From the NCBI GenBank assembly GCA_030526225.1, contig JAUNDF010000039.1:5740-19090 (forward strand): a DNA stretch of 13,351 bases, written 5' to 3'. The notes below the pieces were generated by a model. That model ran no database searches and had not been told where the DNA came from. It saw nothing but the letters and a program-made list of their open reading frames with translations. The stretch comes from Clostridia bacterium. Lineage in GTDB: Bacteria; Bacillota; Clostridia; Christensenellales; Aristaeellaceae. This document shows, one piece after another, positions 183-13,018 of the stretch (positions are counted from its first letter, which is position 1; each line of letters starts with the position of its first letter). The position numbers were made by a program, and so were the translations under genes.

Positions 183-791
183 TCAGCGGTCATACTGCGC
201 CATGCGCTTTTTCAGCACCTCGGGCCTTGCAAGGGAGTAACCGAAGAAGCCCAGCACATCCTGTGCCTGCTGATACACGCCGTGGTTGTAGCACACCAGC
301 CCCGCCTTTTCCAGATGCATGGAGCCGTCCTCCCGGAACAGCTCCTCCTGCACGCGGACGGCCACCACTTCGCCGATGAACATATCGTGGCTGCCCAGCT
401 CCGTCACACTCTTCACCCTGCAGGACAGGTACGCCGGACATTCCGCAATGGCGGGGGCATACTGCAGCTCTGCCGCGGGAACAGCCGTCAGCTTCATTTC
501 GGCAAACTTGTCGAAATCCCGGCCGGATTTTACACCGCACCAGTCCAGCTCCCGGCAGTGGGCCGCATCCACCAGATTGACCACAAACTCGCCGCTTTCC
601 TGAATCAAATGATGGGAATACCGCTCCTTGCGGATGGAGACCGACACCATGGGCGGCGTGGTATTGACGGTGCCTGCCCAGGCCACGGTGATAATGTTGG
701 GCTTTTCCTCGGTGATGCCCCGGCAGGAAATCATCACCGCCGGTACAGGGCAAAGCATGGTGCAGGGATCGATGGGACGGAATTGCTTCAT
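183..791 (-). CDS. Flavin reductase-like (FMN-binding split-barrel) domain protein
   Basis: Track ORF 183..803. The segment ...PNIITVAWAGTVNTTPPMVSVSIRKERYSHHLIQESGEFVVNL... resembles the flavin reductase domain family. The track start at 803 is a GTG that overlaps the SD-like GAAAGGG. The ATG at 791 (MKQFRPID...) lies ~9-11 nt downstream of that SD and is preferred. Stop is TGA (183-185). Confidence 0.8.
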   Translation of the reverse strand: MKQFRPIDPCTMLCPVPAVMISCRGITEEKPNIITVAWAGTVNTTPPMVSVSIRKERYSHHLIQESGEFVVNLVDAAHCRELDWCGVKSGRDFDKFAEMKLTAVPAAELQYAPAIAECPAYLSCRVKSVTELGSHDMFIGEVVAVRVQEELFREDGSMHLEKAGLVCYNHGVYQQAQDVLGFFGYSLARPEVLKKRMAQYDR

Positions 792-864
792 ATTAATAAG
801 CACCCTTTCTGCTGCAAGTCATACGCATTCAATCTGCGGCTGCCGAAACGGCAGCGGATAAAAT

Positions 865-893
865 ATACTAACACGCCCGGGGATAAAATGCAA
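865..893 (-). promoter_or_regulatory. Candidate sigma-A promoter for the flavin reductase gene
   Basis: On the minus strand: TTGCAT (893-888), a 17-nt spacer, then TAGTAT (870-865). Found by pattern match only. Confidence 0.3.
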
Positions 894-916
894 ATCCCCG
901 CCGTCAAGGAGGTTTC

Positions 917-1807
917 ATGGCCTACAACGCCAGACATGGCCACGGTGCCAAAATCCGCAGCAAGGGCAAAATGATTGCCATCATCATCGTTGTCGCCGCG
1001 CTGCTTGCAGTGCTGGCCATTCCCTTTATCGAGCCCTTCCTGCTGGAGGTGGACAGCCGCGCACTGGTGTCCTCCGACCTGCCCGGTGATGTGGGCACCC
1101 TGCGCATCGTGTATGTATCGGATATCCATCGGGGACCGTTCTACAGCCAGAGCCGGGTCCGGCAGCTGTGCAGCCGCATCAACGATCTGCGTCCCGACCT
1201 GCTGATTCTCGGCGGCGACTACGCGGAGGACTCCGACCATGCCATCGACTTTTTCCGCAATCTCCCCGACCTGCATGTCACCTATGCCGTCTGCGCCGTC
1301 ATGGGCGAAACGGACCGCACCCTGCCGGAGAGCAATCTGAGCGTGCTGAAGACCACCATGTACACCGCCGGGGTCACCCCCGTGGTCAACGAGGTGGTCC
1401 CCATCCGCATCGGCGGCGGCTCCACCATTTACGTGGCCGGTATCGACGATGTAACCGCCGGCTCCCCCGCCCTGCAGCAGGTGGCCGCTCAGGTCCGGCA
1501 GGATGATTATGTCATCTTTGCCAGCCATTCCCCGGCGGTGATTCAGGATTCTCTCCGCGCTTCCGGCAGCGACGGAAAGCGCGGCTGGTATGACCTGGGC
1601 CTGTTCGGCCACACCCACGGCGGGCAGATCTGGCCCCTTGGCAAGGCACTGGGCTTCGGGCAGAACATCCCCGACCGGTACATGTCCGGCTGGAAGCAGG
1701 AAAACAAGATTGACATGCTCATCTCCCGGGGCGTGGGCACCTCCGTTGTCCCCATGCGGCTGATGAGCAAGCCTCAAATCCACCTGATTACCGTCAAGTG
1801 CAAATGA
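917..1807 (+). CDS. Membrane-anchored metallophosphoesterase (calcineurin-like, YkuE/YaeI type)
   Basis: AGGAGG at 905-910 lies 6 nt before the ATG at 917. There is an N-terminal TM helix (IAIIIVVAALLAVLAIPFI). Phosphoesterase motifs are present: VYVSDIHRG, LILGGDY, ASHSP, GHTHGGQI. Stop is TGA. Confidence 0.85.
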   Translation: MAYNARHGHGAKIRSKGKMIAIIIVVAALLAVLAIPFIEPFLLEVDSRALVSSDLPGDVGTLRIVYVSDIHRGPFYSQSRVRQLCSRINDLRPDLLILGGDYAEDSDHAIDFFRNLPDLHVTYAVCAVMGETDRTLPESNLSVLKTTMYTAGVTPVVNEVVPIRIGGGSTIYVAGIDDVTAGSPALQQVAAQVRQDDYVIFASHSPAVIQDSLRASGSDGKRGWYDLGLFGHTHGGQIWPLGKALGFGQNIPDRYMSGWKQENKIDMLISRGVGTSVVPMRLMSKPQIHLITVKCK

Positions 1808-1846
1808 GGAAATATTACAAAAATAACGCTTTATGATTTTTGCATC

Positions 1847-1875
1847 TATACAAAAATGTAAAAGCAATGTATAAT
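1847..1875 (+). promoter_or_regulatory. Candidate sigma-A promoter for the solute-binding-protein/galK unit
   Basis: TATACA (1847-1852), a 17-nt spacer, then TATAAT (1870-1875) preceded by TG. It lies in the only AT-rich island between the two genes (1808-1900). Confidence 0.4.
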
Positions 1876-1912
1876 AAAAGCAACTATAGTAATCCGGAGG
1901 GAGTCCGCAACG

Positions 1913-3406
1913 GTGATCCGCAAGATATTCTGCAGCCTGCTGTGCGCGGTGCTGCTTGTTTCGGCCGCGGCTGCATATGCCCAGCCCTTTGTCATGGCCG
2001 GATTTGATGATGCTTCCGCCAATCACGACTGGGAGACCAACCTGTTTTTCCGCCGCATGGAGGAAAAAACCGGCGTCACCTTTATCTATCTGCAATACAG
2101 CGACAAGGCTGCATGGACACAGGCCAAGGCTTCCCTGTTTGCCGAAGGTGAGCAGCCCGATGTGCTGTTCAAGGCCGAGCTGACAAGCGAAGAGACCGAG
2201 CGCCTCTTCGGTCAGGGCTATCTGATTGACCTTGCCCCCTACGTCACCCCCGAGGTGATGCCCAACCTGTGCGCCCTGCTGGAGAAGAACCCTGCATGGC
2301 GTCAGGCCATCACCGGCCGCGGCGGCGAAATCATCACCCTGCCGTATATCAACGAGCTGCCCAACAACAACACCATGTGGATTAACCGCCGCTGGCTGGA
2401 TACGCTGAAGCTTTCCGTGCCCGCCACCGCGGAAGAGCTGACGGAGGTGCTCCGCGCCTTCCGGGACGGCGACCCCAACAAAAACGGCAGCAAGGATGAG
2501 GTCCCCCTCTCCTTTATGAGCATGTGGGATTTGAAGTACCTGTCCCACGCCTTCGGCATCATTGCCAACGATTACAACGTGTACGCCGACGAGGACGGCA
2601 CCGTCCGCTGTGCCTTTGACCAGCCGGCATACCGCGATTTTGTCAACTGGCTGCATCAGCTGTGGGAGGAAGGCCTGCTGTACCGCTCCGGCTTCTCCTC
2701 CATCGATCAGACCCGCATGGTCACCGACCAGAACGCCGTGATGACCATGGGCATGATGTTTGCCCCCACCCCTCTTTCTCTGATCCCCGCAACCGCCATG
2801 GATGATTACGATGCGCTGCCGCCCCTTGTCTGTGAGGGTAAGCAGGTGTACCGCGATTTCTGCGGCGAGGTTGTTCGAGGTGCCTTTGCCGTAACGAAAT
2901 CCTGCGCAGAGCCGGAAACCGTGCTGCGCTGGGTGGATACCCTTTACGGCGAGGAAGGCTCCGTATTGGCGCAGGCCGGTGTGGAGGGTGAGGAATTCAC
3001 CCGCGCAAGCGACGGCACCTGGTACTGGCTCAGCGATGATGAGACGGTCACCAATGTCATCCTCCCCGAACGCACCATCACCAGCGGTGCCTTTGTCCCC
3101 ATGTATGCACCGGCAGCATTTCAGCTGCAGCTTGACCGCGCAGAAACCACCAGAATCATGACCCAGCTGTATGAGCAGCGGCAGTATGTCCGTCTGCCCA
3201 TCCCCCTGAGCCACCTGACAAGCGCGGAGCAGGCCCGTTTGGATGAGCTTCAGAATGTTGTGGCTCCCTGGGCCGAGCAGCAGCTGGTCCACTTCGTCAC
3301 CGGCGAAGCGGTGCTGGATGATGCATCCTGGCAGGCATTTTTATCCCGGCTTCACACCCTTGGCATGGACGAGATTGTGTCCATCTGGCAGCAGAGCAAC
3401 CGATAA
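1913..3406 (+). CDS. Extracellular solute-binding protein, ABC transporter family 1 (LipO/YtcQ-like sugar-binding type)
   Basis: GTG start at 1913 with GGAGGGAG ~10 nt upstream. The Sec-type signal peptide is MIRKIFCSLLCAVLLVSAAAAYA/QP. Its ~500-aa size and N-terminal ...WETNLFFRRMEEKTGVTF... are typical of large sugar/oligosaccharide SBPs. Stop is TAA. Confidence 0.8.
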   Translation: MIRKIFCSLLCAVLLVSAAAAYAQPFVMAGFDDASANHDWETNLFFRRMEEKTGVTFIYLQYSDKAAWTQAKASLFAEGEQPDVLFKAELTSEETERLFGQGYLIDLAPYVTPEVMPNLCALLEKNPAWRQAITGRGGEIITLPYINELPNNNTMWINRRWLDTLKLSVPATAEELTEVLRAFRDGDPNKNGSKDEVPLSFMSMWDLKYLSHAFGIIANDYNVYADEDGTVRCAFDQPAYRDFVNWLHQLWEEGLLYRSGFSSIDQTRMVTDQNAVMTMGMMFAPTPLSLIPATAMDDYDALPPLVCEGKQVYRDFCGEVVRGAFAVTKSCAEPETVLRWVDTLYGEEGSVLAQAGVEGEEFTRASDGTWYWLSDDETVTNVILPERTITSGAFVPMYAPAAFQLQLDRAETTRIMTQLYEQRQYVRLPIPLSHLTSAEQARLDELQNVVAPWAEQQLVHFVTGEAVLDDASWQAFLSRLHTLGMDEIVSIWQQSNR

Positions 3407-3464
3407 CGCTGCCCCACACCAGTCATCACCTACATTAATGATAAAAAGAAGGGCGGAAACAGGA

Positions 3465-4745
3465 ATGAACAATTATGCAGATGTTGGCAAGGCTTTAACC
3501 TCTCCCCGTGTATTGGAAAAACTCTCCGAGCTTTACGGCACCCGCGACGGCATGACGGTCTATCAGTCCAATCGCTACAACGGACTGCTCAAGCGCCATG
3601 AAGAGCTGTTCAATTCCCCTGATCGCGTGCAGTTCATCAGCGCCCCCGGCCGCACCGAAATCGGCGGCAATCACACCGACCACAACCGCGGCCGCGTGCT
3701 GGCAGCCTCTGTCAATCTGGACTGCCTCTCTGCCGTTACCCCCCGCAATGACATGCTGGTCAATTTGGTCAGCGAGGGCTATGCCCCCATTCAGGTGGAT
3801 TTGAGCGATCTTGCGCTGGTGGAAGAGGAGAAGGGCACCACCCGCGCCCTCATCCGCGGCGTTGCCGCCCGCATGGTTGAGCTGGGCTACAAGATTGGCG
3901 GCTTTGATGTAGCCGTTACCTCTTCCGTTGCCTCCGGCAGCGGCCTGAGCTCCTCTGCCGCCTTTGAGGTGATGGTCTGCGCCATCTTCGACCAGCTGTA
4001 CAACGGCTTCGTCATCGATTTCAAGACCCGCGCCAAGATTGGCCAGTACGCCGAAAATGTGTACTTCGGCAAGCCCAGCGGTCTGCTGGACCAGATGGCC
4101 TCCGCAGCCGGCGGTCTGGTGGCTGTTGACTTTAAGGAGGATGACCCCGAGGTATTCCCCCTGAGCTTTGACTTTGCCGCTCACGGCTACTCCCTGGTGG
4201 TGGTTGCCACCGGCGGCAGCCATGCCGACCTCACCGACGACTATGCCGCCATCCCCAACGAGATGAAGGCCGTGGCCGGCAAGCTGGGTGCACCCTACCT
4301 GCGCAAGGTTCGCCGCGAGGAGTTCATCAAGGCCATCCCCGAGCTGCGCAATTCCGTCAGCGACCGTGCCATCATGCGCGCCATGCATTTCTATGATGAA
4401 AACCAGCGCGTTACCCGTCAGGTGGAAGCACTGCGCGACAACGAGCTGACCAAGTTCTTCGACAACATCATCGAGAGCGGCCGCAGCAGCTATATGTACC
4501 TGCAGAACGTTTACGCCAAGCCCGAGGATCAGAGCCTGTCCCTTGCCCTGTGCATGGCCGAATCCATGCTGAAGGACCGCGGCGCATGGCGCATCCACGG
4601 CGGCGGCTTTGCAGGCACCACCCTGAACTTTGTCCCCCAGGATCTGCTGGCCGAGTTCATCGCGTGGAACGAGCAGGTCTTCGGCAAGCACTGCTGCCAT
4701 GTGCTGGACATCCGTCCCCAGGGCGCCGCAGTCATCGAGCTGTAA
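3465..4745 (+). CDS. galK: Galactokinase (GHMP kinase family)
   Basis: The real start is the ATG at 3465 (MNNYADVGK...). The track ORF from 3243 is an upstream extension that overlaps the SBP gene. The galactokinase signature APGRTEIGGNHTDHNRGRVLAA is present. The GHMP ATP-binding motif is GGFDVAVTSSVASGSGLSSSAA, and the C-terminal GGGFAGT motif is also present. Stop is TAA. Confidence 0.85.
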   Translation: MNNYADVGKALTSPRVLEKLSELYGTRDGMTVYQSNRYNGLLKRHEELFNSPDRVQFISAPGRTEIGGNHTDHNRGRVLAASVNLDCLSAVTPRNDMLVNLVSEGYAPIQVDLSDLALVEEEKGTTRALIRGVAARMVELGYKIGGFDVAVTSSVASGSGLSSSAAFEVMVCAIFDQLYNGFVIDFKTRAKIGQYAENVYFGKPSGLLDQMASAAGGLVAVDFKEDDPEVFPLSFDFAAHGYSLVVVATGGSHADLTDDYAAIPNEMKAVAGKLGAPYLRKVRREEFIKAIPELRNSVSDRAIMRAMHFYDENQRVTRQVEALRDNELTKFFDNIIESGRSSYMYLQNVYAKPEDQSLSLALCMAESMLKDRGAWRIHGGGFAGTTLNFVPQDLLAEFIAWNEQVFGKHCCHVLDIRPQGAAVIEL

Positions 4746-4752
4746 TCCCATT

Positions 4753-4787
4753 CGCTCAGGCATTTCGCTGCCTGGGCGATTTTTGTT
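4753..4787 (+). terminator. Rho-independent terminator after galK
   Basis: Stem CGCTCAGGCA (4753-4762) pairs with TGCCTGGGCG (4769-4778), 10 bp with one G-U pair. The loop is TTTCGC, followed by ATTTTTGTT. Confidence 0.6.
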
Positions 4788-4838
4788 GCCCTTTTTCGAG
4801 CAATTGGCAGGATTCCTGCATTCCGCGCCGATTCTCGA

Positions 4839-4867
4839 TTGCAATCAGGGTCAAATTGTGGTAAAAT
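4839..4867 (+). promoter_or_regulatory. Candidate extended -10 sigma-A promoter of the rfb operon
   Basis: TTGCAA (4839-4844), a 17-nt spacer ending in TGG, then TAAAAT (4862-4867). This is ~60 nt upstream of the rfbA ATG. The rfbA SD is GTGAGG at 4914-4919. Confidence 0.5.
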
Positions 4868-4927
4868 TATTTTGATATAGTATGCACATTCCCAGGCGAA
4901 TCAATCAACGAAAGTGAGGCATAGCCC

Positions 4928-5815
4928 ATGAAAGGCATTATCCTCGCCGGCGGCGCCGGCACTCGCTTGTATCCGCTTACCATGGTGACCAGCAAGCAGC
5001 TGCTGCCCGTATATGACAAGCCCATGATCTACTATCCCCTGTCCACGCTGATGCTGGCGGGCATCCGGGATATCATGATTATTTCCACCCCCACCGATAC
5101 GCCCCGCTTCGAGGCACTGCTGGGTGACGGCAATCAGTTCGGCCTGAACCTGACCTACAAGGTGCAGCCCTCTCCCGACGGTCTTGCCCAGGCGTTCCTG
5201 CTGGGTGAGGAGTTTATCGGCGATGAAGCCTGTGCCATGGTGCTGGGTGACAACATTTTCTACGGCAACGGCTTCAGCAAGATTCTCCGCGCTGCCGCTG
5301 ACCGGGCCGAGAACGCACAGCATGCCACCATCTTCGGCTACTACGTCACCGACCCCGAGCGCTTCGGCATCGTGGAGTTTGACGAAAACGGCAAGGTGCT
5401 GTCCGTGGAGGAAAAGCCCGCCAAGCCCAAGAGCAACTACTGCATTACGGGTCTGTACTTCTACCCCAAGGGCGTGAGCAAGATGGCCCACGAGGTGAAG
5501 CCCTCCGCAAGAGGCGAGCTGGAAATCACCACCCTCAACGATATGTACCTCAAGCGGGACATCCTTGATGTGGAACTGCTGGGCCGCGGCTTTGCATGGC
5601 TGGATACCGGCACCATGGATAGTCTCGTGGAAGCAGCCGACTTTGTGCAGATGATTGAAAAGCGCCAGTCCATCAAGATTTCCGCCCCCGAAGAAATTGC
5701 CTACCGCAACGGCTGGATCAGCAAGGAAAAGCTGCTGGAATCCGCCGAACGCTACGGCAAGAGCCCCTACGGCGCTCACCTGAAGGCCGTGGCCGAGGGC
5801 AAAATCCGTTATTGA
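4928..5815 (+). CDS. rfbA: Glucose-1-phosphate thymidylyltransferase (RmlA)
   Basis: The N-terminus is [38 protein letters not shown]. ...DNIFYG... and ...GFAWLDTGT... are classic RmlA motifs. Length is 295 aa. Stop is TGA. Confidence 0.95.
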
Positions 5816-5844
5816 TTCGCATAAGATAAAAGGAGTCCAGTCCC

Positions 5845-6408
5845 ATGGAGAAAATCGCCACCGCACTGCCGGATGTATTCATCATTGAGCCCAAGGTATT
5901 CGGCGACCATCGCGGCTATTTTATGGAAACCTATTCCACCAAGACCTTCGCGGACATCGGCATTGACACCGTATTCGTGCAGGACAACCAGTCCTTCACC
6001 GCCCAGAAGGGCACATTGCGGGGCATCCATTTTCAGAATGCCCCCATGGCACAGGCCAAGCTGGTCCGCGTGACCAAGGGCGCCGTGCTGGATGTGGCCG
6101 TTGACCTGCGCAAGGGCAGCCCCACCTACCGTCAGTGGGTGGCCGTGGAGCTTTCTGCGGATAACAAGCGCATGCTCTACATCCCCCGCGGCTTCGGTCA
6201 CGGCTTCAAGACCCTGACGGATGATGTGGAGTTCTGCTACAAGGTGGACAACCTGTACAGCAAGGAATGCGACCGCGGCATCCGGTTCAATGACCCCGCC
6301 ATCGGCGTTGATTGGGGCGAAGTGATTGAGGCGCTGCTGAGCCAGAAGGATACAGCCGCGCCCCTGCTGGAGGATAGTGACTGCAATTTTGTATATGGTG
6401 AAATTTGA
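5845..6408 (+). CDS. rfbC: dTDP-4-dehydrorhamnose 3,5-epimerase (RmlC)
   Basis: AAAGGAG SD precedes the start. FIIEPKVFGDHRGYFMETY, RGIHFQ, KLVRVTKGAVLDVAVDLR and YIPRGFGHGF are RmlC cupin motifs. Stop is TGA. Confidence 0.95.
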   Translation: MEKIATALPDVFIIEPKVFGDHRGYFMETYSTKTFADIGIDTVFVQDNQSFTAQKGTLRGIHFQNAPMAQAKLVRVTKGAVLDVAVDLRKGSPTYRQWVAVELSADNKRMLYIPRGFGHGFKTLTDDVEFCYKVDNLYSKECDRGIRFNDPAIGVDWGEVIEALLSQKDTAAPLLEDSDCNFVYGEI

Positions 6409-6413
6409 GGAAA

Positions 6414-6526
6414 GCCCTCTCACCGCCTGCGGGCGGAGCTCCCCCGGAGGGGGAGCCAAGGGGATTTCCGCGCCAGCGCCTGGCTCTCCCTTTGGGAGAG
6501 CTGTCACCGAAGGTGACTGAGAGGGC
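6414..6526. repeat. Nested-palindrome structured element: two inverted ~44-nt modules around a 24-nt spacer, in the rfbC-rfbB spacer
   Basis: The left module (6414-6457) is GCCCTCTCA-CCGCCTGCGGGCGG-AGCTCCCCC-GGA-GGGGGAGCC. The reverse complement of the right module (6526-6482) is GCCCTCTCA-GTCACCTTCGGTGAC-AGCTCTCCC-AAA-GGGAGAGCC. Local hairpins are 6423-6436, 6438-6456, 6472-6484, 6483-6501 and 6503-6517. The closing stem pairs 6414-6422 with 6518-6526. Confidence 0.6.
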
Positions 6527-6582
6527 AGGCACAGCAATTTTCATGTATTCCTTTACCGAATCCATTGAAGGAGGACACACCC

Positions 6583-7611
6583 ATGAACATCGTCGTCACC
6601 GGCGGTGCCGGATTTATCGGTGCCAACTTTGTGTATTACGAGCTGAACAACCACCCCGAGGACCGCATCATCTGCATCGACAGCCTGACCTATGCCGGCA
6701 ACCTGTCCAGCCTTGAGGAAGCTCTCAAGAACCCCAACTTCCGCTTCATCAAGGCCGACATCACCGACAAAGCCGCTGTGGAAAAAATGTTTGAGGAAGA
6801 GCATCCCGACATCGTTATCAACTTTGCCGCAGAAAGCCATGTGGACCGCTCTGTGGAGGATCCGGGCCTGTTCCTGCGCACCAACATCCTCGGCACCCAG
6901 ACCCTGATGGATGCCTGCCGCAAGTACGGCATCAAGCGCTACCATCAGGTATCCACCGACGAGGTGTACGGCGATCTGCCTCTGGACCGCCCTGACCTGT
7001 TCTTCCATGAGGACACCCCCATCCACACCAGCAGCCCCTACTCTGCCTCCAAGGCATCTGCCGACCTGCTGGTGCTGGCCTATGCCCGCACCTTCAAGCT
7101 GCCGGTGTCCATCACCCGCTGCTCCAACAACTACGGTCCCTATCATTTCCCCGAAAAGCTGATTCCCCTGATGATTTCCCGTGCGCTGGCTGACGAAAGC
7201 CTGCCCGTATACGGCACCGGCGAGAACGTCCGCGACTGGCTGTATGTGGAAGATCACTGCGCCGCCATCGATCTGGTGGCCCGCAAGGGCCGCGAGGGCG
7301 AAGTGTACAACGTGGGCGGCCATAACGAGCGCACCAATCTGGAGGTTGTGAAGACCATCCTGCGCCAGCTGGGCAAGCCGGAATCCCTCATCACCTATGT
7401 GAAGGACCGCCCCGGCCATGACCAGCGCTACGCCATCGACCCCACCAAGATTCACACCGAGCTGGGCTGGCTGCCCAAGACCACCTTTGACGAGGGCATC
7501 AAGCGCACCATCCAGTGGTACCTGGACAACGAGAAATGGTGGAAGGACATCCTGGCCGGCGATTATCAGAACTACTACGAAAAGATGTATGGAAACAGAG
7601 GCAACGCATGA
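6583..7611 (+). CDS. rfbB: dTDP-glucose 4,6-dehydratase (RmlB)
   Basis: GAAGGAGG (6568-6575) lies 7 nt before the ATG at 6583. The track start at 6565 is a TTG inside the SD and is rejected. MNIVVTGGAGFIGANFV is the Rossmann GxxGxxG motif. The YSASK catalytic motif is present, and DRPGHDQRYAID is typical of RmlB. Stop is TGA. Confidence 0.95.
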   Translation: MNIVVTGGAGFIGANFVYYELNNHPEDRIICIDSLTYAGNLSSLEEALKNPNFRFIKADITDKAAVEKMFEEEHPDIVINFAAESHVDRSVEDPGLFLRTNILGTQTLMDACRKYGIKRYHQVSTDEVYGDLPLDRPDLFFHEDTPIHTSSPYSASKASADLLVLAYARTFKLPVSITRCSNNYGPYHFPEKLIPLMISRALADESLPVYGTGENVRDWLYVEDHCAAIDLVARKGREGEVYNVGGHNERTNLEVVKTILRQLGKPESLITYVKDRPGHDQRYAIDPTKIHTELGWLPKTTFDEGIKRTIQWYLDNEKWWKDILAGDYQNYYEKMYGNRGNA

Positions 7612-8465
7612 AGATTCTTGTAACCGGTGTAGCCGGACAGCTGGGCTACGATTGTGTCAAGCAGCTGGAGCATTTGGGCATCCCCTGCCGCGGTGTTGAC
7701 CGGGACGATTTCGACCTGACCGATGCGCAGGCCGTGATGAACTATGTGCAGGAGTACAAGCCCGATGCCATTATGCACTGCGCCGCCTATACCAATGTGG
7801 ACAAGGCCGAGACCGAGCCTCAGGTGGCTGCCGCCGTCAACGGCATGGGCACGCTGAACATGGTTCGTGCCGCCCAGAGCGTGGGTGCATCCCTGATGTA
7901 CATCTCCACCGACTACGTGTTCGACGGTGAGGGTGACCAGCCCTTTGAGGTTGATGCCCCCTACGGCCCCACCAACGTGTACGGCCTGACCAAGATGCAG
8001 GGTGAGGAGGCCGTGCGCAGCCTGATGACCAAGTATTTCATCATCCGCACCGCATGGGTCTTCGGCATGAACGGCCGCAATTTTGTCAAAACCATGCTGC
8101 GTCTGGGCGCCGAGCGCTCCAGCGTGAATGTGGTATGCGACCAGTTCGGCTCCCCCACCTACACCCCCGATTTGGCCCGGCTGATGTGCGAAATGATTAT
8201 GACCAACCGCTACGGCGTATATCATGCCACCAACGAGGGCTTCTGCTCCTGGGCTGATTTTGCCGCCGCCATCATGCAGCAGGGCAACCGCCGCTGCACC
8301 GTGCATCCCGTGACCAGCGAGGAGTATGCATCCGCCACCAAGCGCCCCGCCAATTCCCGCCTGAGCAAGGATGCGCTGGAGCGCGCCGGCTTCTCCCGGC
8401 TGCCCAGCTGGCAGAACGCCCTGTCCCGCTACATTGTGGAGCTGGACGAAAACGGAATGCTGTAA
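7608..8465 (+). CDS. rfbD: dTDP-4-dehydrorhamnose reductase (RmlD)
   Basis: The ATG at 7608 overlaps the rfbB stop (ATGA, 4-nt overlap, suggesting translational coupling). MKILVTGVAGQLGYD, ISTDYVFDG, YGLTKMQGE and the C-terminal RPANSRLS are RmlD motifs. The track start at 7515 lies inside rfbB and is rejected. Stop is TAA followed by TGA. Confidence 0.95.
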   Translation: MKILVTGVAGQLGYDCVKQLEHLGIPCRGVDRDDFDLTDAQAVMNYVQEYKPDAIMHCAAYTNVDKAETEPQVAAAVNGMGTLNMVRAAQSVGASLMYISTDYVFDGEGDQPFEVDAPYGPTNVYGLTKMQGEEAVRSLMTKYFIIRTAWVFGMNGRNFVKTMLRLGAERSSVNVVCDQFGSPTYTPDLARLMCEMIMTNRYGVYHATNEGFCSWADFAAAIMQQGNRRCTVHPVTSEEYASATKRPANSRLSKDALERAGFSRLPSWQNALSRYIVELDENGML

Positions 8466-8476
8466 TGAATTAAATC

Positions 8477-8516
8477 AGACAGCCGCATACCCTTCACGGC
8501 TGTCTTTTCCCTTTTT
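8477..8516 (+). terminator. Rho-independent terminator (or attenuating hairpin) after rfbD
   Basis: AGACAGCCG (8477-8485) pairs with CGGCTGTCT (8497-8505), a perfect 9-bp stem with an 11-nt loop, followed by TTTTCCCTTTTT. Confidence 0.65.
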
Positions 8517-8531
8517 ATCGGAGGAAGCTAC

Positions 8532-9431
8532 ATGAAAGCGCTGATACTCAATTCCGGCCTCGGCAGCCGCATGGGTGACCTGACCCGCCAGCACCCCAAG
8601 TGCATGACGGCCATTCACGGCGGCGAAACCATTCTGTCCCGCCAGCTGCGGCAGCTGAGCGATGCGGGCATCCGTCAGGTGGTGATGACCACCGGTGCCT
8701 TTGATCAGGTCCTGCGGGACTACTGTTCCTCTCTGGCACTGCCCCTGGACATCACCTTTGTGATGAATCCCCGCTACAGCGAGACCAACTATATCTACTC
8801 CATCTACTGTGCCCGGGAGCATCTGGCGGATGACATCCTGCTGATGCACGGCGATCTGGTGTTTGAAGATGCGGTGCTGGCCGATGTGATGGCCGCGCCC
8901 CACAGCTGCATGGCTGTATCCTCCACCCTGCCCCTGCCGGAAAAGGATTTCAAGGCCGTGGTGGAAGACGGACACATCACCCGGGTGGGCATCGAATTCT
9001 TCGACCATGCCATGGCCGCCCAGCCCCTGTACAAGCTGTGCAAAGAGGACTGGCTGCAGTGGCTGGATGCTATCGCCCGCTTTGTGGATGAAGGCACGGT
9101 GAAGGTCTATGCCGAAAACGCCTTCAATCAGGTATCCGATGCATGCCGCATCCTGCCCCTGGATGTTTTAGACAGCCTGTGCGGCGAGATTGATACCCCC
9201 GCCGATCTGGAGGCCATGAACGCCCGGCTGGACAGCAAAACCGTGTACATGTGCTTCTCCGCGGACATGATTCACTCCGGCCATGTGGCCATCATCCGCA
9301 AGGCTGCCCGTCTGGGACGGCTGGTGATCGGCGTGCTGTCCGACGAAGCGGTGGCCAGCTTCAAGCGCTTCCCCCTGATGCCCTATGAGGAGCGCCGCAG
9401 CCTATTTGCCAGCCTTGCCGGTGTCGATTAG
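8532..9431 (+). CDS. LicC/PntC-like nucleotidyltransferase domain plus the N-terminal half of a TagD-like cytidylyltransferase fold; ends at an in-frame TAG (upstream part of the 8532..10532 frame)
   Basis: GGAGGAAG SD lies 5 nt before the ATG at 8532. MKALILNSGLGSRMG...HPKCM is the NTP-transferase G-loop. ...NPRYSETNYIYSIY... and ...GEIDTPADLEAM resemble LicC. From aa ~237, TVYMCFSADMIHSGHVAIIRKAARLG carries the HxGH motif (9273-9284) of the cytidylyltransferase superfamily. TAG at 9429-9431 cuts this fold. Confidence 0.75.
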   Translation: MKALILNSGLGSRMGDLTRQHPKCMTAIHGGETILSRQLRQLSDAGIRQVVMTTGAFDQVLRDYCSSLALPLDITFVMNPRYSETNYIYSIYCAREHLADDILLMHGDLVFEDAVLADVMAAPHSCMAVSSTLPLPEKDFKAVVEDGHITRVGIEFFDHAMAAQPLYKLCKEDWLQWLDAIARFVDEGTVKVYAENAFNQVSDACRILPLDVLDSLCGEIDTPADLEAMNARLDSKTVYMCFSADMIHSGHVAIIRKAARLGRLVIGVLSDEAVASFKRFPLMPYEERRSLFASLAGVD

Positions 9432-10532
9432 GTGATTGAGCAGAAGCAGCTGGACTACACCGATGTCCTGCGTCAGCTGAAGCCCGATTATGTGGTCCAC
9501 GGCGATGACTGGCGCACAGGCTTTCAGGTGCCCGTCCGGGAGGCTGTGCTCCGCGAACTGGCCGTATACGGCGGCAAGCTGGTGGAATTCCCCTATTCCA
9601 AGGATGAAAAGTATGACGAGCTGGACCGCCGCACCCGCCTGCAGCTGGCCATGCCCGACCATCGCCGGGGCCGCCTGCGCCGTCTGCTGGCCATGAAGCA
9701 GCCTGTCACCTTCCTGGAGGCACACAGCGGCATCACCGGCCTGATTGCCGAAAAAACCACCATCTATCAGGATGGCAAGGCACATCAGTTTGACGGCATG
9801 TGGGTCAGCTCCCTGTGCGATTCCACCGCCAAGGGCAAGCCGGATATCGAGCTGGTGGATATGTCCAGCCGTCTGCGCACCATTGATGACATCATGGAGG
9901 TCACCACCAAGCCCATCATCCTTGACGGCGATACCGGCGGCCTGACCGAGCACTTTGTGTACACCGTGCGCACCCTGGAGCGCATGGGCGTATCCGCCGT
10001 CATCATTGAAGACAAAACGGGCCTGAAGAAGAACAGCCTCTTCGGCACCGAGGTGGAGCAGACGCAGGACAGCATCGAGAATTTCTCCGCCAAGATTGCC
10101 GCCGGCAAGCGCGCCCAGCGCACCCGCGACTTTATGATTATCGCCCGCATCGAGAGCCTGATTCTCGAGCGCGGCATGGAGGATGCCCTGACCCGCGCCT
10201 TCGCCTTTGTGGCCGCCGGTGCCGATGGCATCATGATTCACTCCCGCAAGAAGGATCCGGCAGAGATTTTCGAATTCGCCGAAAAATTCCGCGCCGTGGA
10301 CAAGACAACCCCCATCGTGGTGGTGCCCACCTCCTTTAACACCGTCACCGAGGAGGAATTCGCCGCCCGGGGCATCAACATCGTCATCTACGCCAATCAG
10401 CTGACCCGCAGCGGCTTCCCTGCCATGCAGAAGGCCGCCACCGCCATTCTGGAAAATCACCGGGCCAAGGAAGCGGATGACATGTGCATGTCCATCAAGG
10501 AAATCCTGACGCTGATTCCCGACGAAGTGTAA
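9432..10532 (+). CDS. aepX: C-terminal half of the TagD-like fold fused to phosphoenolpyruvate mutase (PepM/AepX); same frame as 8532..9431, true initiation unclear
   Basis: The frame continues directly after the TAG with GTG at 9432 and no SD. ...LKPDYVVHGDDWRTG completes the TagD-like fold. PepM motifs are present: LEAHSGITGLIAE, WVSSLCDS, ILDGDTGG, the PepM-specific EDKxxxxxNS motif (IEDKTGLKKNS, 10008-10037), ARIES and IMIHSRK. Stop is TAA. Confidence 0.8.
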   Translation: MIEQKQLDYTDVLRQLKPDYVVHGDDWRTGFQVPVREAVLRELAVYGGKLVEFPYSKDEKYDELDRRTRLQLAMPDHRRGRLRRLLAMKQPVTFLEAHSGITGLIAEKTTIYQDGKAHQFDGMWVSSLCDSTAKGKPDIELVDMSSRLRTIDDIMEVTTKPIILDGDTGGLTEHFVYTVRTLERMGVSAVIIEDKTGLKKNSLFGTEVEQTQDSIENFSAKIAAGKRAQRTRDFMIIARIESLILERGMEDALTRAFAFVAAGADGIMIHSRKKDPAEIFEFAEKFRAVDKTTPIVVVPTSFNTVTEEEFAARGINIVIYANQLTRSGFPAMQKAATAILENHRAKEADDMCMSIKEILTLIPDEV

Positions 10533-10547
10533 ACCATCCAATCCATA

Positions 10548-10588
10548 CAAAAACCGGCGTGTCATCTGCTCGACACGCCGGTTTCTTG
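10548..10588. terminator. Bidirectional rho-independent terminator between the convergent pepM and MATE genes
   Basis: ACCGGCGTGTC (10553-10563) pairs with GACACGCCGGT (10572-10582), a perfect 11-bp stem with an 8-nt loop. It is flanked by AAAAA on the left and TTTCTT on the right. Confidence 0.7.
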
Positions 10589-10589
10589 A

Positions 10590-11936
10590 TTATTCTCTTG
10601 CTTCCACATGAGCGAAGCGCCGCTCCACCTTTCGCATGGTGGAAATGATGCCGAAGGTCAGCACGGTGGTCATGGCAATCCAGCTGATGGGCTCCGTGAG
10701 GCATACGCCAAGGTAGCCAAGCCACGGCACCAGGAACATCACCGACAGCACCTTCACCGTCATTTCAAGCACACTGGTCACCAGCGGGATGATTTTCGCC
10801 CCCATGCCCTGCAATGTACACCGGAAGATAAACAGCGGACCCAATGCATAAAAGCACACCACGGCGATTTTGATATAGCGCTCGCCGTTGCGCAGGATAT
10901 CCGCATCATCCGAGGTGGCCACCCAGCCCACCAGCTGGCGGCCAAAGATGAAGGACACCAAAATCAGCACCGTGGTAATCACCGTGTCAATGGCCAGCGC
11001 ATGGCAAACGCCCTGCCGGATGCGGCGGATTTTGCCGGCGCCGTAGTTTTGGCTGACATAGGTGGTCATGGAAATGCCGATGGTGAAAATCATCACCATC
11101 AGGATATCCACAATCTTTCGGGCGGATACATGGGCAATCATCACCTGCGTACCAAGGCTGTTGATGCCGCTTTGCAGGATGATGGTGCCGATGTTGACGA
11201 TGCTCAGCATCAGCGCCATGCTCAGGCCGAAATTTGTCAGCTCCCGCACCTCGCGGCCCTGCAATGCGAAGTCATCCCTGCGGGGCAATACAGCGCCTTT
11301 GCACAGGATATACAGGCAGGACAGCGCCGCCATGGCCTGGGCAATCACCGTGGCAACCGCCGCGCCGCGGATGCCCATGTGCAGCGGGCCGCACATCAGC
11401 AAATCCAGCACCACATTGATGACGATGGCCGCAAACAGGCAGTACAGCGGCCGCTTGCTGTCCCCAAGGGCGCGCAGGGTGTTGGCGCACATGTTGTACA
11501 GCGCCACAAACACCTGACCGCCAATGATGATGGTAATGTACGCCATGGCATCATCCATGATGTGCGCCGGGGTTTTCAGCAGCTCCAGCACAGGCCGCGC
11601 CAGCACAAGGCCCAGCACCACCATCACCGCCGTCACAGCGCCTGTCAGCATCATGGTCCCTGCCACAGCGCGGCGCACACCGGCGGTGTTTTCCGCCCCG
11701 AAATGGCGGGCCGTGACAATGCCGAAGCCCTGGGTCAGGCCGTTGACAAAGCCGGTGAGCAGGTTCACCACCACCGCCGTTGCGCCAACCGCCGCCAGCG
11801 CATTGCCGCCCACGTACATGCTGACAATTTTGCTGTCCGTCATGTTGTAAATCTGCTGGGCCACGTTGCCAATCATCAGCGGAAGGGCAAACAGAAAGAT
11901 GACCTTCGCCGGGAAGCCCTTGGTTAAATCCTTCAT
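10590..11936 (-). CDS. MATE-family efflux transporter
   Basis: 448 aa with ~12 hydrophobic segments. The N-terminus ...FLFALPLMIGNVAQQIYNMTDSKIV... and the internal ...LRALGDSKRPLY... are typical MatE-repeat motifs. GAGGA SD lies ~8 nt upstream of the ATG at 11936. Stop is TAA. Confidence 0.9.
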   Translation of the reverse strand: MKDLTKGFPAKVIFLFALPLMIGNVAQQIYNMTDSKIVSMYVGGNALAAVGATAVVVNLLTGFVNGLTQGFGIVTARHFGAENTAGVRRAVAGTMMLTGAVTAVMVVLGLVLARPVLELLKTPAHIMDDAMAYITIIIGGQVFVALYNMCANTLRALGDSKRPLYCLFAAIVINVVLDLLMCGPLHMGIRGAAVATVIAQAMAALSCLYILCKGAVLPRRDDFALQGREVRELTNFGLSMALMLSIVNIGTIILQSGINSLGTQVMIAHVSARKIVDILMVMIFTIGISMTTYVSQNYGAGKIRRIRQGVCHALAIDTVITTVLILVSFIFGRQLVGWVATSDDADILRNGERYIKIAVVCFYALGPLFIFRCTLQGMGAKIIPLVTSVLEMTVKVLSVMFLVPWLGYLGVCLTEPISWIAMTTVLTFGIISTMRKVERRFAHVEARE

Positions 11937-11944
11937 TCAGCCGT

Positions 11945-12006
11945 CCTCACAAACAAAGATAAAGCCCCCTTGGGCTGCGCTTATTGTAGCGCGGCGCAAG
12001 GGGCTT
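11945..12006 (-). terminator. Candidate rho-independent terminator of the LRR gene (overlaps the MATE promoter)
   Basis: An ~18-bp interrupted hairpin pairs 11962-11980 with 11989-12006 (one mismatch, one bulged C, one G-U). On the minus strand it is followed by TATCTTTGTTTG. Confidence 0.4.
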
Positions 12007-12011
12007 GTCAA
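11983..12011 (-). promoter_or_regulatory. Near-consensus sigma-A promoter for the MATE gene
   Basis: On the minus strand: TTGACA (12011-12006), an exact 17-nt spacer, then TACAAT (11988-11983). The predicted transcription start near 11976 gives a ~40-nt leader. Confidence 0.5.
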
Positions 12012-12037
12012 TTGACCCGACACACGGAATTTTCGGT

Positions 12038-13018
12038 TTATTTCACTTTCTCGTATGGCAGATTCTGCTTCTTTGCGTACTTCTGCGCGTAGCTGCCGGA
12101 TTTGACCAGCAGTGTGGGCGGATTGGCCTGTTCAAAGGCAAAATCGCCGATTTTCTTCACCGACTTGGGGATGGCAATCTCCGTCAGCCTGCATCCGTAG
12201 AAGCAGCCCTCCATGATGGACTTCAGCCCCTTGCCGAGGGTAACCGCCGTCAGGCCTGTGCAGTCGGAAAAGCTGTACTTTCCCAGCGTTTCCACGCTGT
12301 CCGGGAGGATGATTTCCTTCAGCCCCGTGCAATAGGCAAAGCTGTAGTCCCCGATATCCGTTACCGTTTGGGGGATGGTGATTTGATTCAGCTGTTTGCA
12401 CCCATAGAAGGCGTAATTGCCCACGGTCATCACGCCGTCTATGATGGTCACCGCGGTGCTCATGCGCGCCGGAAGACAGCTCACCAGCCGCTGCTCCCAG
12501 GTGTGCATCAGCATGCCGGATTTGAACAGCAGCACCGGATGATCGTCGGTCAGGTAAATGTCCTTCAATGCAGGGCAATCCATGAAGGGGTTATCCCCCA
12601 CCTCGATCAGGGAGTAGGGCAAATCCACGGACTGCAAGCCGATACAGCCGGCATAGCAGAGACTGCCCATGGTTTTTACGCCCTCAGGCAAAGCCACGGC
12701 AGTGAAGCCCGTACAGCCCGCAAAGCAGCCATCCTCCAGCACAGACACGCTGTCAGGCAGGGTGATGTCCGTTAGTGCAGCGCACCCGCGGAAGGCATCC
12801 GCACCAATGCTTTCGATGCCCGATGGTACCGTATACTGCGCGGTATCCGTCCCGGACAGGAAGCAAATGAGCCGGTGATTCTGCCTGTCCGTCAGCGCAC
12901 CGCCTGCAAAGGCAAAGCGGGGATGATTGCCCGAAACCACGATTTCCTTCATCGCAGGGCAATTGGAGAAAGGATTGCCCTTGATTTCCTTCAGTGTATC
13001 GGGCAGCACCACGCGCAC
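12038..13018 (-). CDS. BspA-type leucine-rich-repeat (LRR_5) protein, C-terminal part; the frame is actually open up to 13066 and continues the 13067..13351 ORF
   Basis: It contains repeated ~23-25-aa units: ITLPDSVSVLEDGCFAGC, VALPEGVKTMGSLCYAGC, ITIPQTVTDIGDYSFAYC, IILPDSVETLGKYSFSDC, IAIPKSVKKIGDFAFE. The track start at 13018 is a GTG inside a repeat (..PNLVRVVLPD..) with no SD. Stop is TAA (12038-12040). Confidence 0.7.
   Translation of the reverse strand: MRVVLPDTLKEIKGNPFSNCPAMKEIVVSGNHPRFAFAGGALTDRQNHRLICFLSGTDTAQYTVPSGIESIGADAFRGCAALTDITLPDSVSVLEDGCFAGCTGFTAVALPEGVKTMGSLCYAGCIGLQSVDLPYSLIEVGDNPFMDCPALKDIYLTDDHPVLLFKSGMLMHTWEQRLVSCLPARMSTAVTIIDGVMTVGNYAFYGCKQLNQITIPQTVTDIGDYSFAYCTGLKEIILPDSVETLGKYSFSDCTGLTAVTLGKGLKSIMEGCFYGCRLTEIAIPKSVKKIGDFAFEQANPPTLLVKSGSYAQKYAKKQNLPYEKVK

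Follow-up and report, generated by a model that had tools for sequence, protein, structure and literature searches.

A single in-frame amber codon interrupts what would otherwise be one long, three-domain gene in an uncultured member of the Clostridia, which raises the question of whether the codon is decoded, separates two genes, or is a plain lesion, either of the gene or of its consensus sequence. An earlier reading of the window (the whole 13,351-nucleotide stretch of DNA analysed here), made from the letters alone, had put forward four options: read-through or recoding, re-initiation at a GTG abutting the stop, a recent nonsense mutation, and a base-call error. Of these, a recent nonsense mutation and a base-call or consensus error fit all the evidence presented below, whereas recoding and re-initiation are unsupported. 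An ordinary nonsense pseudogene is the most likely explanation, a consensus error is possible, and programmed recoding is very unlikely.

Organization of the interrupted gene

The gene occupies a single frame of 666 codons (8532..10532, forward strand) followed by TAA, and the TAG at 9429-9431 is its sole interruption (Table 1). As originally described, this codon alone parts two ORFs that share one frame, the upstream one (8532..9431) starting with ATG and encoding 299 amino acids, and the downstream one (9432..10532) starting with GTG and encoding 366. Three Pfam families follow one another in the frame, namely NTP_transf_3 at residues 3-122, CTP_transf_like at 244-340, and PEP_mutase at 382-640. 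More than 120 homologues align with the frame colinearly over their full length, in the same order of PF12804, PF01467, and Ppm (NTase-CyTase-Ppm). This architecture has been catalogued before, in Rice et al. (2019, Nat Commun 10:3698, PMC6697681), who list Ppm fusions with PF12804 (MobA/LicC-like NTase, 'PntC') and PF01467 and also define the Ppm-specific motif EDKXXXXXNS. The present frame agrees with these fusions in domain order, domain content, and this motif, and its homologues carry the NCBI name 'phosphoenolpyruvate mutase'; what sets it apart is the TAG at codon 300. A PF13714 score of 187 bits (cut-off 31.5), together with the TIGR02320 equivalog score, assigns the C-terminal domain to the PEP mutases.

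Table 1. Coordinates of the features discussed, counted along the window.
Feature	Position	Strand	Remarks
rmlA-rmlC-rmlB-rmlD (dTDP-rhamnose synthesis)	4928..8465	+	Upstream context; from source names, Pfam for rmlB, and ORFs
Shine-Dalgarno GGAGG	8520..8524	+	7 nt 5' of ATG 8532
Disrupted gene, whole	8532..10532	+	PntC-like NTase / Fom1-type CyTase / PEP mutase fusion with one TAG
LicC/PntC-like nucleotidyltransferase domain, N-terminal	8532..9236	+	Residues 1-235; PF12804 6e-13 (3-122), PF00483 1.2e-6
Fom1-type cytidylyltransferase domain	9237..9656	+	Residues 236-375; PF01467 2.7e-14 at 244-340; TAG at residue 300
HSGH	9273-9284	+	HxGH nucleotide-binding motif, CyTase domain
In-frame amber codon TAG	9429..9431	+	Residue 300; variable column of the fusion family
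GTG abutting TAG	9432..9434	+	Conserved Val codon of the V(V/I)EQK motif
HGDDW	9498-9512	+	CyTase domain
PEP mutase domain	9675..10529	+	TIGR02320 409.3 bits (cut-off 319.55); PF13714 5.2e-55
DGDTGG	9924-9941	+	PEP mutase motif, intact
EDKTGLKKNS	10008-10037	+	Matches Ppm-specific EDKXXXXXNS
ARIES	10143-10157	+	PEP mutase motif, intact
IHSRK	10236-10250	+	PEP mutase motif, intact
Intrinsic-terminator-like hairpin, 13 pairs	10551..10584	+	Directly 3' of TAA

The middle domain had been called TagD-like. The TagD/TarD glycerol-3-phosphate cytidylyltransferases (PDB 1coz, 2b7l) do share its nucleotidyltransferase fold and its HxGH motif, and alignment to 1coz bears out the by-eye placement of the TAG column at the Glu of VDEVI in B. 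subtilis TagD. However, this match is distant (E ~1e-7), whereas the CyTase of Fom1, a CyTase-Ppm protein from Streptomyces wedmorensis, aligns over 120 residues with an E-value of 1.6e-38 and has both HxGH and HGDDW; judged by these alignments, the domain is not a TagD orthologue. The RTxGIS(T/S) motif of TagD is indeed missing and is replaced by FPYSKDEKY, but since PYSKDEKY is a conserved trait of the entire fusion family, the idea of a non-canonical CyTase peculiar to the present copy was rejected. The proposed position of the amber codon in the middle of the CyTase fold holds, since the Pfam match spans residue 300 and the Fom1 CyTase (PDB 5x3d, chain residues 27-146) is colinear across the stop.

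Fom1 cytidylylates 2-hydroxyethylphosphonate, and the present domain resembles the Fom1 CyTase in sequence. The two proteins differ in that Fom1 has no additional PntC-like domain at its N terminus, and in that the present CyTase is cut in two by the TAG. A further link to Fom1 comes from the neighbours of the fusion gene, as most relatives adjoin ppd (a TPP enzyme) and a PhpC-like Fe-alcohol dehydrogenase, which together form a route to HEP (PMC8942020). Both genes stand beside the fusion gene in 73 of the 81 relatives' loci, whereas tblastn finds neither in the window, which accordingly holds no HEP-type phosphonate cluster with adjacent ppd and Fe-alcohol dehydrogenase.

GGAGG-like sites precede the real starts in the window. 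No Shine-Dalgarno sequence was found before GTG 9432, ATG 9651, or ATG 9693, in agreement with the sequence-only reading. The PEP mutase domain thus has no uninterrupted, translatable coding sequence with a start signal of its own, the TAG lying upstream of the domain without a Shine-Dalgarno sequence. The PntC-like domain, on the other side, lies wholly 5' of the TAG. Downstream, the terminator-like hairpin ends the transcription unit, facing a convergent MATE gene.

The amber column in relatives and the age of the change

Hundreds of uninterrupted homologues of 667-671 amino acids, 70-78% identical to the present frame, occur in Clostridia and Bacteroidales, and more than 120 of them reach 73-78% identity at 100% coverage. 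Compared with these homologues, the TAG is the only interruption, with no gap and no frameshift. The column in which it falls had been singled out for comparison, and it proves to be variable, mostly K, R, or Q (K46 R39 Q8 S7 N7 A5 E4 H2 D1 L1). It thus accepts at least ten kinds of residue and does not call for a special amino acid. We also surveyed the column at the DNA level, which is unbiased by ORF calling, and a stop codon was found in 0 of 80 loci from GTDB species and in 0 of 120 metagenome contigs. Among 56 genome loci the column reads AAG in 17, CAG in 4, and GAG in 3, and among the 120 metagenome contigs AAG in 19 and CAG in 5. Each of these codons is one base away from TAG and they are frequent in the column, so one substitution would be enough to create the stop. 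The valine codon that follows is conserved, being GTT in 55, GTG in 54, GTA in 37, and GTC in 31 of 177 relatives. A dedicated restart codon at GTG 9432 was therefore rejected, as this is the ancestral valine codon of the family.

The ancestral codon of the present copy is inferred rather than observed, because no sister genome was found in any collection searched, and full-length homologues reach 78% identity at best. The sequence comes from an NCBI Clostridia MAG that was built from a single sample and is represented nowhere else: its species was absent from the GTDB species scan, and all proteins of the window form singleton clusters at 90% identity. Exact look-ups of the 299-residue product, RmlD, and the MATE protein returned only Logan contigs of run SRR24915835, identical to the window, while those of the 366-residue C-terminal ORF and RmlA returned no record. 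A search with the CyTase domain alone gave nothing above 71% identity and returned short proteins only, and a wobble-tolerant DNA pattern for ASLAGVD-NNN-VIEQKQLDYT had no match in JGI metagenomes. The Logan assembly of SRR24915835 has the same TAG and is 100% identical over 7427-9922. Both this assembly and the MAG were probably made from one set of reads, and hence they are not independent.

The intact PEP mutase motifs, which like the two CyTase motifs are all as first described, had been taken to argue against an old decayed pseudogene, and the wider comparison agrees. Identity to homologues is 0.65 for the N-terminal NTase, 0.74 for the CyTase upstream and 0.65 for the CyTase downstream of the stop, and 0.85 for the PEP mutase, and intact pairs at equal overall divergence give 0.66, 0.76, 0.67, and 0.85, respectively. 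Of 259 invariant family columns, only 2 differ in the present copy, both of them in the CyTase (K333V and E338A). No relaxed constraint or secondary lesion was thus detected 3' of the TAG by either measure, and an old decayed pseudogene was rejected. The lack of excess divergence downstream of the stop indicates that the change is recent, and the lack of secondary lesions points to a very recent change or an error. The perfect preservation of the PEP mutase domain is, however, also predicted by continued function.

A probable nonsense mutation and its alternatives

A recent nonsense mutation of a known trifunctional phosphonate-pathway gene, leaving a recent pseudogene, is in our view the probable explanation. 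The stop is premature relative to intact orthologues and is not shared by relatives, and the locus has no NCBI protein accession. RmlD (MDO4484135) and the MATE protein (MDO4484136) have consecutive accessions, so neither half of the fusion was given a product. In all these respects the gene resembles the 'internal stop' pseudogenes of PGAP, which have one unconserved in-frame stop compared with intact homologues and no annotated product, although it differs from ordinary nonsense pseudogenes in showing no secondary lesions yet. The change would be a single-base substitution, in the simplest case from AAG, CAG, or GAG to TAG, and would have struck a codon that varies among relatives and is not critical. 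Translation from ATG 8532 would then stop at 9431, yielding a 299-residue product made up of the complete PntC-like domain and a truncated half of the CyTase that is probably unable to fold. The PEP mutase domain, having no ribosome-binding site of its own, would not be made, or only in traces. With a truncated product and little or no PEP mutase, the gene would functionally be a recent pseudogene.

We regard it as unlikely, though possible, that the base instead arose as an artefact of sequencing, assembly, or consensus calling, or reflects a minority allele taken up by the assembler, and that the organism itself has AAG, CAG, or GAG and a normal 666-residue enzyme. The single-sample origin of the MAG, represented nowhere else, would suit such an error, and all but one base of the gene looks functional and under purifying selection. 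Known kinds of error include G-to-T and C-to-T changes that arise by miscalling or damage. Nevertheless, short-read consensus substitution errors are a rarity beside true segregating mutations, and both assemblies, NCBI MAG and Logan, have the identical base and run through the TAG without a contig break.

That the TAG is real and the locus retains some of its function, by re-initiation at GTG 9432 or by basal read-through and with no dedicated mechanism, seems improbable to us. Re-initiation could give a 366-residue protein that includes the entire PEP mutase domain, basal amber read-through could supply some full-length enzyme, and the 299-residue product would retain PntC-like activity. The adjoining TAG and GTG, the location of the PntC-like domain wholly upstream, and the lack of downstream decay are consistent with this view. 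Moreover, about 40% of PEP mutases occur on their own, unfused (Rice et al. 2019, PMC6697681), so this domain does not depend on its fusion partners. A natural two-gene version of the same family also exists (locus L081, CAUBKG010000009.1), in which the three-domain frame is likewise interrupted by stops. However, that true fission lies at the NTase/CyTase domain boundary and comprises a 25-codon spacer, two TAA codons, an AAGGAG Shine-Dalgarno sequence, and an ATG, none of which is present in the window. Here the break lies inside PF01467, GTG 9432 lacks a Shine-Dalgarno sequence, and the GTG is the ancestral valine codon seen in relatives that have no stop, so that neither a translationally coupled split gene nor re-initiation by design, as the sequence-only reading had considered, is borne out. 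A mid-fold split would also leave the C-terminal product with an orphan half-domain of about 75 residues, and a recent change would account for the missing decay just as well. The related possibility that the amber is both real and tolerated, through re-initiation at the GTG as an incipient gene fission or through suppression in an apparently TAG-avoiding lineage, has a slight chance.

Programmed recoding, in which a suppressor tRNA, pyrrolysine-type machinery, or a lineage-specific code decodes the TAG to give 666 residues, is hardly credible. Apart from the TAG the frame is flawless, the 11 other stops checked in the window include no TAG (TGA 5, TAA 6, the TAA of the fusion gene included), and a 121-nt fold around the codon (9400-9520) is better than shuffled sequences (MFE z = -2.19, with 5 of 200 shuffles as good). 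The fold score, however, comes from one arbitrarily chosen window and is weak. If TAG makes up about 15-20% of stops, 0 of 11 is compatible with chance (p estimated at ~0.1-0.2); the count is not significant, yet it is no positive proof that TAG terminates here. Against read-through or recoding stand the DNA-level surveys, which found the stop in no relative, and the tolerance of the column for many residues. In addition, no in-frame TAG occurs in the other 10 complete genes of the window (3,316 codons), an observation on which genome-wide reassignment of TAG was rejected, and neither a tRNA nor an Rfam element was found in the window.

Consequences for the locus and the strain

As no relative has it, the TAG looks like an ordinary recent nonsense mutation or a consensus error. 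The locus merits annotation as a pseudogene or a re-check of the reads, and is not reportable as a recoding candidate. If re-initiation were true, the strain would have a stand-alone PEP mutase and a free PntC-like enzyme, and gene fission would be seen here at its first step. If instead the stop is real and acts as an ordinary nonsense mutation, the strain, an uncultured member of the Clostridia, has probably become unable, only just now, to make phosphonate (C-P) cell-surface decorations, a strain-level loss of function of the kind seen in every genome and one that matters little.

Architecture and neighbourhood of the fusion gene

The sequence bears out the earlier description of a 666-codon frame with a single in-frame amber codon (see table), and the positions previously reported for the HSGH, HGDDW, DGDTGG, EDKTGLKKNS, ARIES, and IHSRK motifs were all exact on re-checking. 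Because the CTP_transf_like match spans residue 300, the TAG falls within the second of the frame's three domains. The frame scores 409 bits against the NCBIfam equivalog model for PEP mutase (cut-off 320). The nearest relative of the middle domain is the CyTase domain of Fom1 (PDB 5x3d), which aligns colinearly over 120 residues at E 1.6e-38, whereas TagD, to which it had been likened, is only remotely related (E about 1e-7). The RTxGIS motif is indeed replaced by FPYSKDEKY, but this stretch is kept family-wide and is thus no defect peculiar to the window copy.

Features of the fusion gene and its surroundings (domains are Pfam matches with the stop read through)
Feature	Position	Strand	Remark
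rmlA, rmlC, rmlB, rmlD		+	upstream of fusion gene, same strand
Shine-Dalgarno GGAGG	8520-8524	+	precedes ATG 8532
Fusion frame	ATG 8532 to TAA 10530-10532	+	sole interruption TAG 9429-9431
NTP_transf_3	residues 3-122 of fusion frame		
CTP_transf_like	residues 244-340 of fusion frame		spans stop at residue 300
PEP_mutase	residues 382-640 of fusion frame		
Strong terminator hairpin	10551-10584		downstream of fusion gene
MATE transporter gene			downstream, convergent to fusion gene
BspA-type LRR protein gene			downstream of fusion gene

The three-domain architecture is common and already described. Among 5.8 billion proteins searched, the best 120 matches are almost exclusively uninterrupted proteins of 667-671 aa with 100% query coverage, 73-78% identity, and the same three Pfam domains, and a scan in which each GTDB species was represented by one genome yielded 555 relatives in Clostridia and Bacteroidales. 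A published survey of Ppm fusions found PF12804 in 33%, PF01467 in 23.6%, and both in 2.9%, and the PF12804 type was characterized as phosphonate cytidylyltransferases (PntC) (Rice et al. 2019, PMC6697681). Genes for the TPP-dependent decarboxylase Ppd and an Fe-alcohol dehydrogenase, a pairing that constitutes the route to 2-hydroxyethylphosphonate (PMC8942020), flank the fusion gene in 73 of 81 relatives' loci; 2-hydroxyethylphosphonate is the substrate of Fom1's CyTase. Both genes are missing around the "orphan" fusion genes of the window and its nearest relatives (loci L002, L004, L072, L080, and L082; 76-78% identity). Across loci L002-L081, the proteins of Bacillota (Clostridia, Lachnospiraceae, Oscillospiraceae) and Bacteroidota (Prevotella, Bacteroides cutis, Bacteroidales MAGs) share 70-78% identity, which is far above expectation for vertical descent across phyla and suggests horizontal spread of the gene in gut and rumen communities.

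In the window, the fusion gene ends an rmlACBD (dTDP-rhamnose) gene row (4928-10584). From rmlD to the fusion gene there is a gap of 66 nt, in which a GC-rich hairpin of 11 pairs precedes a T-rich tract (TTTCCCTTTTT, 8477-8505; scored on the minus strand by the scan). This element may be a terminator or attenuator between the rml genes and the fusion gene. Further upstream, a 497-aa ORF (1913-3406, +), whose N-terminus resembles a signal peptide and which has no Pfam match at E<=1e-5, overlaps the mechanically called 500-aa galactokinase ORF (3243-4745), whose real start is probably ATG 3471. Protein accessions run along the contig from RmlD (MDO4484135) directly to MATE (MDO4484136), so neither half of the fusion gene was given a protein, from which we infer a pseudogene call by the annotators.

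The stop column in relatives

In an alignment of 120 homologues, the column of the stop has no gap and holds K (46), R (39), Q (8), S (7), N (7), A (5), E (4), H (2), D (1), and L (1); the position is thus variable, and no special residue is needed there. TagD has Glu at this position, as a by-eye alignment had already placed it; the residue is Leu in Staphylococcus aureus TarD and Ser in Fom1. Because protein databases cannot hold stops, the column was also surveyed in DNA. No stop was found there in the best 80 genome loci (tblastn), nor among the at least 120 metagenome contigs listed as matches to a family-specific degenerate DNA pattern in which this codon was left free. AAG, CAG, and GAG, each one substitution away from TAG, are frequent in relatives.

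Age and origin of the stop

The window copy retains identities to its homologues of 0.65, 0.74, 0.65, and 0.85 in the NTase, upstream CyTase, downstream CyTase, and PepM segments, compared with 0.66, 0.76, 0.67, and 0.85 for intact pairs at equal overall divergence. Two of the 259 columns invariant in the 120 homologues are altered, K333V (9528-9530) and E338A (9543-9545), both of them a short way past the stop, within the CyTase domain. Because neither segment identity nor invariant columns reveal measurable decay, the base change would have to be recent, or else not real. Among columns conserved at 95% or more, the CyTase domain has 5 of 11 deviations while holding 64 of 371 such columns, and constraint on it may be slightly relaxed in this lineage.

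The evidence is best explained by a single base change that is not programmed and affects a gene otherwise typical of a known fusion family. We consider a genuine recent nonsense mutation the probable case; it would leave a PntC-like fragment of 299 aa, and PEP mutase would not be made. That the TAG is instead a consensus error or minority allele seems unlikely: two Logan contigs of sequencing run SRR24915835 together cover everything from 7427 to the end of the window and match it at 100% identity, TAG included, so the base is reproducible between assemblers, although the same reads probably underlie both assemblies. Clustering at 90% identity leaves each protein of the window alone in its cluster, so the collections searched hold no sister strain.

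It is improbable that the locus keeps some function because ribosomes re-initiate by accident or read through the stop at a basal level. As the sequence-only reading had stated, neither GTG 9432 nor the internal ATG codons have a Shine-Dalgarno sequence before them; GGAGG-like sites do stand before genuine starts of the window. Its proposal of re-initiation at TAG-GTG also loses ground because this GTG encodes the conserved Val of V(V/I)EQK and is present in 54 of 177 stop-free relatives. A bona fide natural gene fission does occur in the family, at locus L081 (L081:1259-3328, CAUBKG010000009.1), where the frame is split at the NTase-CyTase boundary (query residue ~233) by a 25-codon spacer with two TAA codons, an AAGGAG Shine-Dalgarno sequence, and an ATG start. 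The window has none of these and is cut mid-fold. Programmed recoding, also proposed earlier, is very improbable. The RNA around the TAG (9400-9520; MFE -45.6 kcal/mol) is slightly more stable than dinucleotide shuffles, 5 of 200 of which fold as well, but this signal (z = -2.19) is weak and the stretch was chosen arbitrarily. Against recoding, the 10 other complete genes of the window (3,316 codons) are free of in-frame TAG codons, the window contains no tRNA or Rfam family, and relatives carry sense codons at the column, a contrary sign that had been sought in close strains and is seen only across the family (70-78% identity). At 183-13018, 11 other stop codons were checked, the fusion gene's own TAA among them; they comprise five TGA, six TAA, and no TAG, a sample too small for significance. 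The locus departs nowhere from known biology.
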